This document shows positions 1,594 through 10,188 of a DNA stretch of 16,495 bases, piece after piece (within the stretch, counting starts at the first letter, position 1; each line of letters begins with the position of its first letter). The stretch is from a virus. A program made the translations under genes and the position numbers. The notes below the pieces were generated by a model. That model had not been told where the DNA came from. It ran no database searches and saw only the letters and a list, made by a program, of their open reading frames with translations. The stretch lies in the UHGV virus genome UHGV-0357595; one strand, 5' to 3'.

Positions 1594-1836
1594 ATGAACA
1601 AAATTTCAACATATCGAAAACAGCTTGGGCTGTCTCAAAGACAACTTGCTGTTCAGTTAGGGTGGATACAAAGCCGACTGGCAAATTACGAAGCAAATTT
1701 TCGTACCCCTGGACTAGAGGAGTGCAGAAAAATTGTTTCTACCCTTAATCGGCTTGGCGCTCATTGTGGACTTGACGATGTATTCCCCCCAGACGGTAAG
1801 CATAGCGAAAACAGCATAGGAGCGGTTGATTCATGA
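1594..1836 (+). CDS. Cro-like HTH XRE-family regulator (80 aa)
   Basis: ATG at 1594 with GGAGG 8 nt upstream; HTH signature LGLSQRQLAVQLGWIQSRLANYEAN; divergent from the repressor; stop overlaps the start of the next gene (ATGA at 1833-1836). Confidence 0.75.
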   Translation: MNKISTYRKQLGLSQRQLAVQLGWIQSRLANYEANFRTPGLEECRKIVSTLNRLGAHCGLDDVFPPDGKHSENSIGAVDS

Positions 1837-2255
1837 AAATCAGGCATGAGCACATCGAATCAGTGTTGTTAGCCCTGGCAGCCGAAAAAGGGCAGGCGTG
1901 GGTCGCTAACGCAATTACTGAAGAATATCTGCGCCAGGGGGGCGGCGAATTGCCCCTTGTACCAGGCAAGGACTGGAACAATCAGCAGAATATCTATCAC
2001 CGTTGGTTGAAAGGTGAAACGAAAGCGCAAAGGGAAAAAATTCAGAAACTGATCCCTGCGGTTCTGGCAATTCTTCCGCGCGAGCTGCGTCACCGACTCT
2101 GCATCTTCGATACCCTGGAACGCCGTGCATTACTGGCGGCGCAGGAAGCGTTGAGTACGGCAATTGATGCGCATGATGATGCAGTCCAGGCCGTTTACCG
2201 GAAAGCACATTTCAGCGGTGGTGGGTCGCCCGGCGATTCTGTCGTAGTGCATTGA
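1833..2255 (+). CDS. YdaT-like protein (hypothetical regulator or toxin following cro)
   Basis: 140-aa ORF translationally coupled to the Cro-like gene; size and position match the ydaS-ydaT arrangement of Rac-type prophages; family assignment is from memory only. Confidence 0.5.
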   Translation: MKIRHEHIESVLLALAAEKGQAWVANAITEEYLRQGGGELPLVPGKDWNNQQNIYHRWLKGETKAQREKIQKLIPAVLAILPRELRHRLCIFDTLERRALLAAQEALSTAIDAHDDAVQAVYRKAHFSGGGSPGDSVVVH

Positions 2256-3127: not shown

Positions 3128-3874
3128 ATGAAAAATATTGCGACAGGAGGCGTTCTGGAGCGTATCCGCAGACTGGCCCCACCACATGTAACCGCCCCAT
3201 TCAGAACGGTTGCGGAGTGGCGCGAGTGGCAACTTGCTGAAGGCCAGAAACGTAGCGAGGAGATCAACCGCCTGAATCGTCAGTTGCGGGTGGAAAAAAT
3301 TCTGAATCGCTCAGGCATCCAGCCGTTGCACCGTAAATGCTCGTTTGCGAATTACCAGGTGCAGAACGACGGCCAGCGATACGCGTTAAGCCAGGCGAAA
3401 TCCATCGCCGATGAACTGATGACCGGGTGTACAAATTTTGCGTTCAGCGGAAAACCTGGTACCGGGAAGAATCACTTAGCGGCAGCTATCGGGAATCGCC
3501 TGCTGAAAGACGGTCAGACAGTGATTGTGGTTACCGTGGCTGATGTTATGAGCGCCCTGCACGCCAGCTATGACGACGGGCAGTCAGGCGAAAAATTTTT
3601 GCGGGAACTGTGCGAAGTGGATCTGCTGGTTCTTGATGAAATTGGCATTCAGCGCGAGACGAAAAACGAGCAGGTGGTACTGCACCAGATTATTGATCGA
3701 CGGACAGCGTCGATGCGTAGCGTGGGAATGCTGACAAACCTGAACTATGAGGCCATGAAAACATTGCTCGGCGAGCGGATTATGGATCGCATGACCATGA
3801 ACGGCGGGCGATGGGTGAATTTTAACTGGGAGAGCTGGCGTCCGAATGTCGTCCAGCCAGGAATTGCGAAGTGA
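3128..3874 (+). CDS. DnaC-like helicase loader (IstB-like AAA+ ATPase)
   Basis: 248-aa ORF; Walker [16 protein letters not shown]; Walker B-like DLLVLDEIG; follows the initiator gene. Confidence 0.85.
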
Positions 3875-3896
3875 TTTTTACCGGGAGGAAATTTTA

Positions 3897-4658
3897 ATGG
3901 AGACTGTTTTTGACGCACTGAAAGCGATGGGAAAAGCCACATCCATAGAACTTGCTGCGCGACTTGATATCAGTCGTGAAGAGGTACTGAACGAGCTGTA
4001 GGAACTGAAAAAGGCTGGTTTTGTTGATAAAAGCGCGTACACCTGGCGTGTGGCTGATAACAACGTTCAGCAGGAACAGCCAGAGCAGGCAGAACTGCCG
4101 GAAGAAACCACCACGGCAACAGTCGCGAAAATTTCGGAGTGCGATTTAACTGCGGCGATTGAACAACGTGGGCCACAAACGGCGGATGAGTTGGCTACAT
4201 TGTTCGGTACCACATCACGCAAAGTAGCTTCAACGCTGGCAATGGCTATCAGCAAAGGACGCCTGATTCGCGTAAACCAGAACGGTAAATTTCGTTACTG
4301 CATACCGGGCGATAATTTACCAGCAGAGCCGAAAGCAGCATCGGTAGCGGAAACTGATGGTAAGGCCTTTCCTCAGCCCACAGGTGTTGCGTTACCAGTA
4401 CAGGAGGCTGCAACACAGGAAGATATTAAAACAGAAACGGTGGCGGACATTGTGCAGTCGCTGCCATCGTTTACTGAAACGCGAGCGGATGACCTGGTTT
4501 TACCATCGCTGCATATGGCAAACCGCGAACTGCGTCGGGCGAAAAATCATGTCCAGAAGTGGGAGCGAATCTGCGCCGCGCTGCGGGAGCTGAACAAGCA
4601 CCGGGATATTGTTCGACATATTTTCGATTCCTCCAGTCGTATTGTGTCGGAAAAGTGA
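3897..4658 (+). pseudogene. hypothetical protein interrupted by an in-frame amber (TAG) codon at 3999-4001
   Basis: ATG at 3897 with GGGAGG 8 nt upstream; the frame is open for 34 codons, hits TAG at 3999-4001, then stays open in the same frame to 4658; the downstream part has only a GTG at 4050 with no Shine-Dalgarno. Confidence 0.6.
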
Positions 4659-4673
4659 TTGCCGGAGGCACCT

Positions 4674-5096
4674 ATGGCAAAAGTATTTACACCAGAAGAG
4701 CGAGAAAAAATTAAAGGGCAGGTTGTTGAACTTGTACGTCTGAGCGGTCGCGAGACGTTACGGGCTCTGGAGGTTAAAACCGGTGCATCAAGGTATTACA
4801 TAAGCACTCTCGCCAGAGAACTGGTCGCCAGTGGTGATGTTTACAATTCAGGCTACGGATTATTCCCGTCTGAGCAGGCGCGTAAGGACTGGCAAAACGC
4901 CCGCAAAAAACTATCCAGGGCAAAGGTGAAAAAAACGGTTGTGGTTGATCCGGACCTTATCTGGTCATTACCAGACGGAGAAATACGCCGCTACGACAGG
5001 CGTCTGAACATAATCTGTCGCGAGTGCAGGAAGAGCGAAGTTATGCAGCGCGTGCTGGCGTTTTATCAGGGGAATTTTCAGGAGGTGGCACAGTGA
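4674..5096 (+). CDS. hypothetical protein (141 aa)
   Basis: ATG at 4674 with GGAGG 6 nt upstream; basic C-terminal half; no confident family call. Confidence 0.6.
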   Translation: MAKVFTPEEREKIKGQVVELVRLSGRETLRALEVKTGASRYYISTLARELVASGDVYNSGYGLFPSEQARKDWQNARKKLSRAKVKKTVVVDPDLIWSLPDGEIRRYDRRLNIICRECRKSEVMQRVLAFYQGNFQEVAQ

Positions 5097-5293
5097 GCGG
5101 GATTGACTACCAAGAATTGGCTGCTGCCAACGCTTTCCTGGCGGATGTGCGGGCAGGGGCGTTTAACGACCTTTGCGCGGCGTTTGTCAGGCACGCAAAA
5201 ATTGCAGGACTGGGTGATGCCGATACCGTAACGCTTAAGGAAGTGACAGAAGCATTGTTGCATTGTGCGGAACAGATTCGCGCGGCTGAATAA
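5093..5293 (+). CDS. hypothetical small protein (66 aa)
   Basis: GTG at 5093 with GGAGG (5081-5085) upstream; start overlaps the upstream stop (GTGA), suggesting translational coupling. Confidence 0.4.
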   Translation: MSGIDYQELAAANAFLADVRAGAFNDLCAAFVRHAKIAGLGDADTVTLKEVTEALLHCAEQIRAAE

Positions 5294-5566
5294 TTAAATT
5301 TAGTGTTGTAAATAAAATTTAATCCTTAACCGGAGGGATTTCTGCACCCTCAAATAATCAGGAGGCCGCCCAAAAGGGCGGAACAGATAATGCTTACGTT
5401 GAAACATTTTATCGACATACCAACATGGTTAGCCGTCATTGCTTTTGTTAAAATACACATCCACTTTTCTGTGCAATGTTTAACCACTGGTCATATCAAA
5501 TGGTATTCATGCGAACCATGATATAGAATCATGGCTTGAGAGAGTCGATGAAAGCGCAACTATGGT

Positions 5567-6145
5567 ATGAGAGACATTGATGTAAGAAAGGCTGTGCATG
5601 CCAAGATTCTGAGAGATCATCATAAAGATCCTGACACCCTAATCATTGATGAGTTTACGATGAATCTAGGGGCTAGCAGAGCTGATATAGCAGTGATCAA
5701 TGGGCTTATACATGGTTATGAGTTGAAGAGCAAGAGTGATAACTTGCTCAGATTACCAGCGCAGGTGCAACATTACTCATCAGTGATGGATAAAGTAACG
5801 TTGGTTGTCTCTGATTGCCATCTTTATGATGCTTTAAGCATAGTTCCATCATGGTGGGGGATAAAGCAAGTTACGCAAGGTGCACGGCAAGGTATCCATT
5901 TAAAAACAATTCGAACTAGCAAGTTGAATCCACAAGTGGACAAACTTTCCTTAACAATGCTTCTTTGGAAAGATGAATTGCTTTCCCTATTAAGTGATGT
6001 AGGGGAGCTACAGAATTTGAAAAATAAACCTAAACGCGTCTTATGGTCAAAACTCGCCAATAGTATGGATGTTGGCGAGCTTCGTGAAGCTGTTCGAGTT
6101 AAACTTAAAGCCCGTAAAGAGTGGCGAGTTGCTCAACAACCTTAG
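5567..6145 (+). CDS. putative PD-(D/E)xK-type nuclease-like protein (192 aa); possibly sce7726-family
   Basis: ORF in the AT-rich island; motif RADIAVINGLIHGYELK (Asp followed about 12 residues later by Glu-x-Lys) resembles a PD-(D/E)xK core; weak Shine-Dalgarno; family name is a recollection, not a search result. Confidence 0.6.
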   Translation: MRDIDVRKAVHAKILRDHHKDPDTLIIDEFTMNLGASRADIAVINGLIHGYELKSKSDNLLRLPAQVQHYSSVMDKVTLVVSDCHLYDALSIVPSWWGIKQVTQGARQGIHLKTIRTSKLNPQVDKLSLTMLLWKDELLSLLSDVGELQNLKNKPKRVLWSKLANSMDVGELREAVRVKLKARKEWRVAQQP

Positions 6146-7202
6146 TTATGTGATGGTTTTGCCCAATCCTACGCCATACCTCTGGGCTACCAAATTTATA
6201 GTTACCAGAGGGATTGGCTTTGTAGGCTTGATACTCGTTTGCATAATATTCTATGTCTCTATCTCCCGCACAGAATGTAGGCCCTGAATATTCTCGATGA
6301 GCAAGAATATCCTCACTATGTTTACCATATTGTTCATAACCAAAGCGATTAGCTACTCTTCCTCGAAATACCCAAAAGTCATTATCTCCAGAGTATCTGA
6401 CGCTGGCAGATACGCTAGGGAATCGCGTCGAAAGCCTATTAAAGTCGGGGTGCTGTACTCCATAATCACTATAAATCACATTTCTGGCAAGTTCTTTTCT
6501 ATTCATTAAACTCTGCCATAAAATCCACTCGATTCGAGGTTGAGAATATAGACCAACAGAAATATCACTGAGATCTGTAGGAAATGAACCCCCAGAAAGA
6601 ATCACTTTTCTGTATTCATTGAGGTGCGCCAGATTGTTTATCAATCCCATTGCCAACGTATATAGTTCGCCGGAATTAAGTTTATCCTCGGTTAACTCAT
6701 CTCTTAAGTCAATAATTATATCAATATTTGATAAAGGAATTCCCAGATGATTAATGTAATGCGTTATTAATTGTGGGTTAACCAGATCTAACGTGGTTAA
6801 TCTCAAGCATATTTCATTCTGCATTAATTCATCAATCGCTCTTTTATAGTTAGATGGGCGAGTTGGTGAACTGACAGGAATAACTCTTATCCCCATATCT
6901 CTAACTTGATGAACCGCATTTATTATAGGGTAATGATCTTCAGGAGAAATAAAATGCTCTTCAATTAATAATCCATCAATATAAACACCTTGCATATCTG
7001 AGCAAGATTTTGAGACTTTCTTTCCGAACTCTATAAGAGTCTCGTTATAACTCTTTAAGGCAATACCTGAATCAGGGTCAATTGGCACTGGTTCAATTTC
7101 GAGTAATGGCAAAATTTTTGATTTCTTTTCAATGGATAGCTGCGATAAAGCTGATAACTCAGAACGTTTCGCTTTCAGAATAGGAATATATGAAATTGTC
7201 AT
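6105..7202 (-). CDS. hypothetical protein (365 aa), partner of the putative nuclease; possibly beta/sce7725-family
   Basis: Long minus-strand ORF in AT-rich DNA; start ATG at 7202 with AAGGT upstream; N-terminus MTISYIPILKAKRSELSAL; convergent with the 192-aa gene and overlapping it by 41 bp at the 3' ends. Confidence 0.7.
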   Translation of the reverse strand: MTISYIPILKAKRSELSALSQLSIEKKSKILPLLEIEPVPIDPDSGIALKSYNETLIEFGKKVSKSCSDMQGVYIDGLLIEEHFISPEDHYPIINAVHQVRDMGIRVIPVSSPTRPSNYKRAIDELMQNEICLRLTTLDLVNPQLITHYINHLGIPLSNIDIIIDLRDELTEDKLNSGELYTLAMGLINNLAHLNEYRKVILSGGSFPTDLSDISVGLYSQPRIEWILWQSLMNRKELARNVIYSDYGVQHPDFNRLSTRFPSVSASVRYSGDNDFWVFRGRVANRFGYEQYGKHSEDILAHREYSGPTFCAGDRDIEYYANEYQAYKANPSGNYKFGSPEVWRRIGQNHHITKVVEQLATLYGL

Positions 7203-7321
7203 GTTAATACCTTATACAGAATCAATTAACAATTAATGGTTCTTCGGACATTGAAATTTATATCGCAAAAATTGGCAAACTCTCCTCGACTACTCACTTG
7301 TGGGTATCCTGGCGTAAAAGG

Positions 7322-7373
7322 AATGACTTGGCAATACCCGGTGTGATCATAAGTCATTGAAAATGATCATTTT
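7322..7373. promoter_or_regulatory. palindromic elements with Dam (GATC) sites upstream of the 365-aa gene
   Basis: Inverted repeat AATGACTT (7322-7329) / AAGTCATT (7351-7358) flanking TGATCAT (7344-7350); perfect 14-bp palindrome AAAATGATCATTTT (7360-7373). Confidence 0.3.
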
Positions 7374-7644
7374 TATCAGTCTTTCTTCCATGATGAATGC
7401 TAATGCCATTTGATTTGTTGAGGTGAAAACTGTTAAAAATCAAAACGATGTAATTGAAATGAACGTTCGGTAGCATTCACGCTTTAAATGTTTCTTTTGT
7501 GCTGATTGGATGAATTTTGGTCACTTATGATGAGAGATGTTGCAGGAAAAGAAGTTGGCATTGATCTATTGGATAGTTAGAATTGCTGCGGGTGCTTGAG
7601 GCTATCTGCCTCAGGCATGAACACCAAAAGGCAGATAGAGAAAA

Positions 7645-7711
7645 GCCCCAGTTAACATTACGCGTCCGGCAAGACGCTTAACATTAATCTGAGGCCAATT
7701 TCATGCTTTGC
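7645..7711 (-). ncRNA. candidate Sok-like antisense RNA of the hok locus
   Basis: Minus-strand promoter-like elements TTGCCT (complement of 7741-7746) and TAACCT (complement of 7718-7723), antisense to the hok leader; 3' end not resolved; placed by analogy with hok/sok loci. Confidence 0.3.
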
Positions 7712-7759
7712 ACATGTAGGTTAGCCTCTTACGTGCCGAAAGGCAAGGAGAAGCAGGCT

Positions 7760-7915
7760 ATGAAGCAGCAAAAGGCGATGTTAATCGCCCTGATCGTCAT
7801 CTGTTTAACCGTCATTGTGACGGCGCTGGTAACGAGGAAAGACCTCTGCGAGGTACGAATCCGAACCGGCCAGACGGAGGTCGCTGTCTTCACAGCTTAC
7901 GAACCTGAGGAGTAA
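7760..7915 (+). CDS. hok: Hok/Gef-family type I toxin (51 aa)
   Basis: Translation MKQQKAMLIALIVICLTVIVTALVTRKDLCEVRIRTGQTEVAVFTAYEPEE matches the Hok/Gef family (HokD/RelF-like as recalled); single transmembrane helix; an in-frame upstream ATG at 7703 would extend the frame to 70 codons. Confidence 0.85.
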   Translation: MKQQKAMLIALIVICLTVIVTALVTRKDLCEVRIRTGQTEVAVFTAYEPEE

Positions 7916-9915: not shown

Positions 9916-9941
9916 CTCAATCTGTTATCCGGGGCTATATT
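9912..9941 (+). promoter_or_regulatory. PR'-like late promoter
   Basis: -35 TTGACT (9912-9917), 18-bp spacer, -10 TATATT (9936-9941); overlaps the stop codon of the Q-like gene. Confidence 0.55.
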
Positions 9942-10003
9942 CCTCACGCGCCAGCAAAATCTGGCGTCGGGATTAGGAACCCCGGATAGAGACCGCGACA
10001 GAC

Positions 10004-10025
10004 ACACGCCGCGAGCGTGTTTTTT
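10004..10025 (+). terminator. tR'-like rho-independent terminator
   Basis: Stem ACACGC (10004-10009) / GCGTGT (10015-10020) followed by TTTTT (10021-10025); about 60-70 nt downstream of the PR'-like promoter. Confidence 0.6.
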
Positions 10026-10188
10026 ATTGTCGTATGCACGCGCACATCTGAATTATGGTGGGGCGTATGGGGGAGCTGAAAAGCTCGCCGGTTGGTTTCC
10101 CGGTAGTTCCTAACCCTGTACGTCTCACCACCCGATGATTAGGAACCTGACGGTGGTGATGGTTTAGAAACCACCAGAGGGCGTCATT

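Follow-up and report, generated by a model that had tools for sequence, protein, structure and literature searches.

A convergent, overlapping Beta/cII-like gene pair in a Rac-like lambdoid prophage: a candidate minimal member of the gop-beta-cII and PD-lambda-2 group

Introduction

The viral genome UHGV-0357595 of the UHGV collection, a stretch of 16,495 nucleotides referred to here as the window, contains a pair of genes that are transcribed towards each other and share their 3' ends: one encodes a protein of the P4 cII / sce7726 family (the cII-like gene), and the other a protein of the Beta family (beta). Judging from family membership and gene order, this pair is the conserved core common to the gop-beta-cII system of P4 and to many loci resembling the PD-lambda-2 system, and it is near-obligately linked across a broad range of bacterial phyla. 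We propose, giving the idea about an even chance, that the cassette is a prophage-borne anti-phage module and the minimal member of the gop-beta-cII / PD-lambda-2 group.

The gop-beta-cII system confers protection from phages lambda and P1; its first component, Gop, has been reported to be toxic without Beta (PMC9122126). The neutralization of Gop toxicity by Beta is attributed to Ghisotti 1990, as cited in PMC9122126, where the P4 genes gop, beta, and cII are described as non-essential. Upon expression of the phage accessory gene orf184, this system is triggered to kill the cell (bioRxiv 10.1101/2023.04.06.535777). Three components make up PD-lambda-2: A, which is HigB-like, B, which has an Xre helix-turn-helix (HTH) and a peptidase domain, and C, which belongs to the Beta family. 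The system has been classed as toxin-antitoxin (TA)-like. Overexpressed B is toxic, an effect that A relieves, whereas C is needed for defense and not for neutralization (PMC9519451).

The original prediction, which was made from the sequence alone, presented the pair as its best candidate for an undescribed system. This stands only in part, since both families belong to published defense systems (Rousset et al. 2022, PMC9122126; Vassallo et al. 2022, PMC9519451) and are named in RefSeq as 'sce7726 family protein' and 'beta family protein', the undescribed element in the searchable literature being the two-gene form that has no toxin. As far as that literature shows, what is new here is the two-gene form standing by itself at hotspots of lambdoid prophages, the recognition of Beta plus a cII-like nuclease as the common core of two systems regarded as different, and a convergent overlap that spans phyla, is locked in frame, and codes for both proteins.

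Co-occurrence and conserved overlap of the two genes

The association between both families was assessed from either side. The cII-seeded set comprised 80 loci, found with the cII-like alignment in contigs of one genome per species, and covered Gamma-, Alpha-, Beta-, and Deltaproteobacteria, Acidobacteria, Firmicutes, Actinobacteria, Chloroflexi, Armatimonadota, Gemmatimonadetes, Melainabacteria, and the candidate phyla radiation (CPR). A convergent Beta open reading frame (ORF) lies immediately downstream of the cII-like gene in 77 of these 80 loci, two of the three exceptions being contig ends, and when viral contigs were searched starting from Beta, a convergent cII-like partner was present in 54 of 56 loci. 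Co-occurrence, which had been named beforehand as a test of the original prediction, is near-obligate in both directions, and the question of whether the pair is convergent elsewhere has a uniform answer: the 134 pooled pairs, which collapse into 80 clusters at 90% identity, are all convergent.

The coding regions overlap in 76 of the 80 clusters, with 29 distinct overlap lengths ranging from 11 to 167 bp, and the length is 2 mod 3 in all but one of these 76. An overlap of 41 bp, as found in the window, would be unremarkable in one genome alone; it is the conservation of the overlap that sets it apart from chance. The distance between the codon for W186 of the cII-like protein and that for the near-invariant H351 of Beta is exactly 30 nt in 69 of 79 loci. 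In the remaining overlapping loci this spacing is off by multiples of three (33, 54, 69), and the frame is broken only in loci where the genes do not overlap.

The nucleotide information profile of the aligned loci changes at the W codon. Upstream of it, the first and second positions of the plus frame are informative, and from this codon on, the third positions of the plus frame, which are the second positions of the Beta frame, are highly conserved. At about positions 6104 to 6130 of the window, the same nucleotides encode conserved residues of both proteins (listed in Table 1), including R183 of the cII-like protein, which is found in 72/72 distinct sequences.

The possibility of a hidden bidirectional terminator or a structured RNA in the overlap was considered and ruled out: RNAalifold gave no consensus structure on either strand for 59 anchored sequences, the window fold z-score was about 0, and no terminator-like site was found in or near the overlap. 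Since conserved RNA structure and terminator are both absent, dual protein coding explains the conservation of the overlap. Rather than serving in regulation, the overlap could just as well be a frozen accident that this dual coding has fixed. Separation of the two genes is feasible, since they are found apart in P4 and in the lineage of two further loci (L014/L015). Long-lived convergent overlaps of such a rigid antiparallel form are rare, and this one lends itself to clean tests in which a regulatory device can be weighed against a frozen accident.

A second subtype of the two-gene cassette was found in the E. coli contig JAKYQU010000047 (L085, positions 3134-4763). Its cII-like protein is 54% identical to that of the window and its overlap spans 59 bp; the cassette occupies a second classic moron slot, between the lysis genes and the terminase gene Nu1.

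As a separate observation, near-identical cassettes are present in Stenotrophomonas spp. and in a contig labelled Nocardiopsis yanglingensis (L058, L061, L064, L070, L072, L080), which points to either recent horizontal transfer or assembly contamination. The long 'ORFs' upstream of beta in these loci resemble high-GC antisense artefacts.

The cII-like protein

The 192-amino-acid protein had been likened to the sce7726 family and said to have a PD-(D/E)xK-like motif, and both statements hold. The NCBIfam model NF033832 (sce7726_fam) matches it from end to end (1.7e-56), the PADLOC model for P4 cII ('cll') matches at 2.4e-28, and phrog_984 matches as well. Homologues carry the precomputed Pfam label PF26915 (Phage_P4_cII) in the protein database, and P4 cII itself is recovered by BLASTP with 28% identity (E 2e-17), so that sce7726 and P4 cII are one family. 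With 5,282 representatives at 50% identity (E<=1e-3), nearly all of them between 185 and 250 amino acids long, this family is large; one database source calls a homologue 'MmcB-like'.

Residues D40 and E52-x-K54, which form the motif, are present in 72/72 distinct homologues, together with E29 and a downstream Q66-xxx-Y70. The full set of invariant positions in these 72 sequences comprises E29, D40, E52, K54, S55, D58, R62, and Q66, whereas Y70 is found in 70 of them. A D...(D/E)-x-K motif followed by Q-x-x-x-Y, placed on an alpha-beta-beta-beta-alpha-beta core, is the signature of RecB-type PD-(D/E)xK enzymes, and from this pattern the cII-like protein is predicted to be a nuclease of that type.

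The Beta protein

The original prediction had likened the 365-amino-acid protein to the beta/sce7725 families. The first of these names holds, since Pfam PF14350 (Beta_protein) matches over the full length of the protein (1.3e-52); the second finds no support, the protein having no NCBIfam match at E<0.1, in a library whose inclusion of an sce7725 model is unconfirmed. The Beta homologues from Sorangium and Nannocystis likewise have no NCBIfam match. Among the PADLOC models, those for PD-Lambda-2_C match over the full length (2.2e-41 and 5.8e-38) and that for P4 beta at 1.8e-4, whereas the P4 Beta protein itself aligns with 23% identity in BLASTP (E 9e-9).

For Beta, a TIM barrel with the eight-fold beta/alpha repeat is predicted at high confidence, and it has no specific known relative. 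A sequence-profile search of the PDB with the Beta family returned nothing significant, and an AlphaFold2 model of Beta from the single sequence, without an alignment, was uninformative, with a predicted local distance difference test (pLDDT) score of 37.8. The conserved residues D76, R134, D165, and D246 lie at the C-terminal ends of successive predicted strands, and R223 just past one. In TIM barrels, the active site is formed at the C-terminal ends of the strands. Because of this placement of its conserved residues, Beta has the look of an enzyme more than that of a passive antitoxin.

Gene organization and genomic context

The description of the locus in the original prediction, a convergent pair of genes for 192 and 365 amino acids that shares 41 bp within an AT-rich island, agrees with the ORF coordinates and with the base composition: the guanine-cytosine (GC) content is 0.35-0.41 across 5294-7589, compared with 0.49-0.52 in the flanks. 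The 3' ends are set by the stop codons, TAG at 6143-6145 for the cII-like gene and TAA, read 6107-6105, for beta. As the stop codons fix both 3' ends, the extent of the overlap is independent of the choice of start codons. The coordinates of the pair and of neighboring features are collected in Table 1.

Table 1. Features of the window, with positions counted from its first nucleotide.
Feature	Position	Strand	Details
cII-like gene (P4 cII / sce7726 family)	5567..6145	+	192 aa; ORF, ATG start
Beta-family gene (beta)	6105..7202	-	365 aa; ORF, ATG start; predicted TIM barrel
Tail-to-tail overlap of both coding regions	6105..6145		41 bp; codon positions paired 1-1, 2-3, 3-2
Dual-coding core	6104..6130		cII-like L180-K181-x-R183-x-x-W186-R187 (+) opposite Beta Q358-L359-A360-x-L362-x-G364 (-)
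Low-GC cargo island (moron)	5416..7577		Variable slot between replication-region genes and hokD of a Rac-like lambdoid prophage
Upstream region of the cII-like gene	5294..5566	+	Expected to hold its own promoter
Upstream region of beta	7203..7577	-	Expected to hold the beta promoter
ydaT-family gene	1833-2255		'Toxin YdaT family protein' (RefSeq); after the cro-like gene of the immunity region
hokD/sok type I toxin-antitoxin locus	7590-7915		Directly adjoins the cassette; Rfam sok 7590-7765 (119.8 bits); Hok ORF 7760-7915
P1/P7-type C4 antisense control module	9935-10135		Just before the lysis region; Rfam isrK 9948-10025, C4 antisense RNA 10051-10135, a1/b1 target 9935-9988

The regulatory DNA of the pair was searched on both sides. 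A promoter scan gave fewer sites than it did on shuffled sequence, and no site suited the position of the cII-like gene or of beta. Among the enterobacterial relatives, the DNA upstream of the two genes was not conserved. A perfect palindrome, CCATGATATAGAATCATGG (CCATGAT-ATAGA-ATCATGG), lies at 5516-5534, some 33 nt upstream of the start codon of the cII-like gene, and overlaps the -10-like sequence TATAGAAT. It is a possible operator for autoregulation of this gene, and it is not conserved in relatives. Five of these (L006, L007, L008, L010, L011) share a TTTAAAGT...AAAAA motif at a similar distance upstream of their cII-like gene.

By its gene content, the element that carries the pair is a Rac-like lambdoid prophage. 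Its best match has the gene order recE, kilR, a cI/cro-like pair, ydaT, ydaV, DUF1627, DUF977, the Beta/cII-like pair, hokD, DUF1367, lysis genes, and terminase. Homology with the flanks of other Rac-like phages (L002, L003) breaks off near 5415 and returns from 7578 on, delimiting a cargo of about 2.16 kb that contains just the two genes and their upstream regions; in the same slot, other Rac-like phages carry unrelated small genes, only the flanks being shared. Of 5,426 complete E. coli genomes, 93 contain the DNA of the cassette, with identities of 99.4-99.9% among the matches listed; strains of O121:H19, O55:H7, and O111 are among them, and phage Rac-SA53 has this DNA as well. Beyond this slot, the pair occurs in the P4 hotspot and on plasmids, where tblastn recovered distant pairs only. 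A general rule by which the cII-like gene would run in the direction of the phage operons was considered and rejected: it is true in the E. coli Rac-like context and fails across other viral contigs.

Both genes are under purifying selection, since nonsynonymous divergence (dN) is far below the saturated synonymous divergence (dS): dN between the window and its enterobacterial relatives is 0.26-0.36, and 0.17-0.33 among those relatives, with synonymous sites saturated in both genes. Natural disruptions have nevertheless occurred in E. coli. In strain PEC209 (L144, 1106-2979), an IS1A insertion splits beta next to an intact and identical cII-like gene, and in strain SA53-3 (L145, 451-1145) as well as in phage Rac-SA53, IS1 is inserted just upstream of the cII-like gene. 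A cluster of partial Beta proteins of 215 amino acids (P0155) has 123 member sequences. That the loss of beta is tolerated beside an intact nuclease gene speaks against Beta as an essential antidote to the nuclease, and a role as its activator or sensor would fit.

A strong promoter-like site, TTGGCA-17-TAGAAT, was observed at 7555-7583, at the border between the cassette and the hokD/sok locus; it probably serves the hok mRNA.

Proposed function and alternative explanations

We infer for the cassette a defensive role of the superinfection exclusion or abortive infection type, exerted by an intact, autonomous two-gene unit that is carried as cargo in the variable slot of the E. coli prophage. 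Beta would act upstream, as a sensor of a phage cue or as an enzyme that processes it, and the cII-like nuclease would act downstream as the effector that cuts DNA; this division of labor is put forward with much lower confidence than the defensive role itself. The tail-to-tail overlap is ancestral, and it is kept because the same DNA encodes C-terminal residues that are conserved in the one protein and in the other. A terminator has no space in the overlap, and none is predicted, so that transcription of each gene must proceed into the other. Transcriptional interference between the genes is therefore plausible; the collision would couple their expression, either through antisense RNA or through the encounter of the polymerases. 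Ghisotti and colleagues reportedly described, in 1990, a mutation in the P4 cII terminator that gave rise to a temperature-sensitive phenotype, attributed to impaired beta expression. If this account is right, it would be a direct precedent for interference between convergent transcription units.

Several observations weigh against this interpretation. The known toxic component of each of the characterized systems, Gop in one and PD-lambda-2B in the other, is absent from the window, and the locus that best matches the PD-lambda-2 models, an IMG/VR contig (L137), is devoid of a cII-like gene. The clone from which PD-lambda-2 was described ends as little as 396 bp downstream of the Beta gene (PMC9519451), and from the position of this end, defense by that system probably does not need an intact downstream convergent gene. 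In the window, moreover, the promoter scan gave no site above background. Regarding the proteins themselves, Beta resembles generic TIM barrels only, and its chemistry is therefore not indicated, whereas the cII-like family matched no nuclease Pfam family when 29 members were scanned at a permissive threshold and gave nothing significant in a sequence-profile search of the PDB. In the absence of such Pfam and PDB profile matches, its assignment as a nuclease is motif-based.

A bolder version, which we regard as possible but unlikely, would make the pair an ancient and self-sufficient two-gene immune core, of which gop-beta-cII and PD-lambda-2 would be elaborations. The overlap would then be a built-in expression switch, working through antisense or transcriptional interference, and Beta, endowed with a novel chemistry such as signal synthesis or the modification of nucleotides or DNA, would control the RecB-type nuclease.

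We consider it unlikely that the pair forms a TA (addiction) module that stabilizes the prophage, where the nuclease would be the toxin, Beta the antitoxin, and the overlap a safeguard against the loss of one gene. The near-obligate linkage of both genes would be expected from such a module, P4 Beta has been described as neutralizing the toxicity of Gop (Ghisotti 1990, cited in PMC9122126), PD-lambda-2 has been classed as TA-like, and the cassette adjoins the type I TA locus hokD/sok. However, the disrupted beta of PEC209 stands beside an intact and identical nuclease gene (the expression levels of which are not known), and the cluster of partial Beta proteins, with its 123 members, points in the same direction. 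In PD-lambda-2, moreover, the toxin is neutralized without Beta, and a conserved TIM barrel of 365 amino acids with an enzyme-like pocket would be atypical for an antitoxin.

The tolerated loss of beta also bears on a self/non-self mechanism similar to restriction-modification (R-M), in which the Beta barrel would modify host DNA, as in barrels of the DpdA/TGT type, and the PD-(D/E)xK protein would cut unmodified incoming DNA. Even though the layout of the pair would resemble that of many type II R-M systems, a nuclease gene that persists without its presumed modification partner speaks against classical R-M logic, and we hold this explanation to be improbable.

We judge to be just as improbable a role in the phage life cycle, either in the regulation of lysogeny or in the processing of prophage DNA, as the historical name 'cII' hints. 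The name given to the P4 gene is that of a regulator, and Rac-like prophages of E. coli have the cassette at an early-right/nin-like location, with its cII-like gene co-directional with the phage operon. This orientation is not conserved relative to phage operons elsewhere, though, and the slot is variable, most related phages being without the cassette. The pair is also found in a different prophage slot, in satellites, on plasmids, and in non-phage chromosomal contexts across phyla, and gop, beta, and cII of P4 have been described as non-essential (PMC9122126). Finally, a decayed and inactive remnant of a three- or four-gene system that has lost its toxin, as the missing partners of P4 and PD-lambda-2 and the insertions in some E. 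coli copies could suggest, is very hard to reconcile with two intact ORFs of which the catalytic residues are invariant and dN is far under saturated dS, with a dual-coding frame that has been maintained, and with the two-gene form being the commonest architecture in close and distant relatives.

Comparison with known systems

The link to gop-beta-cII of P4, suggested in the original prediction with reservations, is confirmed by family and by layout. As in the window, P4 has a Beta gene (PF14350) and a gene of the cII/sce7726 family that are convergent, in the order gop (+), beta (+), cII (-), and these genes are non-essential cargo in a mobile-element hotspot, with a P4 cII protein that keeps the catalytic motif residues. 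Contrary to the window, the two P4 genes do not overlap, being separated by a gap of 27 nt with an annotated terminator, their anchor codons lie 341 nt apart instead of 30 nt, and P4 cII is longer at its C-terminus by about 80 amino acids. The window, in turn, is without gop, its proteins have the low identities to their P4 counterparts given above (23% for Beta and 28% for cII), and it belongs to a lambdoid prophage rather than to a P4 satellite. No gop-like ORF was found upstream of beta, where the longest ORF on the beta strand has 43 amino acids in 7203-7700, and phmmer with P4 Gop recovered P4-type loci only.

With PD-lambda-2, the window shares the Beta family of component C, and its Beta protein is nearer to PD-Lambda-2_C than to P4 beta. 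As defined, however, PD-lambda-2 does not include a cII-like component. No ORF for the HigB-like component A (PF09907) was found beside the pair, this component being found in other loci only, and component B (Xre HTH plus Peptidase_M78, or ImmA/IrrE) is not encoded upstream of beta either in the window or in any of its close relatives; upstream of the cII-like gene, no conserved or relevant ORF was found in the window. Given that Gop, HigB, and the Xre-peptidase protein are all absent, the locus is a member of neither gop-beta-cII nor PD-lambda-2 as these are defined.

Looking at the whole set of loci, the gene upstream of Beta encodes an Xre-HTH protein with Peptidase_M78 in 16 of them, often after a HigB-like ORF (PADLOC PD-Lambda-2_B and _A), gop in five P4-type loci, an Xre protein with Peptidase_S24 (LexA/CI-like) in four (L035, L036, L125, L130), and an FRG-domain protein in one (L078), whereas nothing conserved is found there in the window and all close relatives. 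This diversity suggests that the Beta/cII-like core recruits different repressor-protease modules. An overlapping cII-like gene is present in 15 of the 16 PD-lambda-2-like loci with Xre-M78, L137 being the exception. This locus (3449-6669 of its contig) matches the PADLOC models for PD-lambda-2 at 8.8e-45 (A), 1.1e-157 (B), and 5.5e-182 (C), and in place of the cII-like gene it has a convergent but non-overlapping ORF of 164 amino acids (6175-6669), weakly similar to a methyl-directed type II restriction enzyme. The ORF that follows resembles, by eye, the type I R-M specificity protein HsdS, and the L137 sequence has no E. coli match.

Convergent type II R-M pairs and TA-like modules with convergent transcription place a nuclease gene tail to tail with the gene of a second enzyme. 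The window resembles type II R-M in this layout, in the separate promoters, and in its location on mobile DNA, but it is without a methyltransferase domain and tolerates the loss of beta. No R-M family is known to us in which phyla have a dual-coding overlap in common.

gop-beta-cII and PD-lambda-2 have so far been treated as separate three-gene systems of unknown mechanism, and the comparison made here indicates that they have a two-gene core in common. This core also occurs by itself, on prophages, satellites, and plasmids as well as in the chromosomes of many phyla, a form which detection rules built on three genes would probably miss as a complete system. If the stand-alone form proves active, it would offer the easiest way into the mechanism of the group as a whole.

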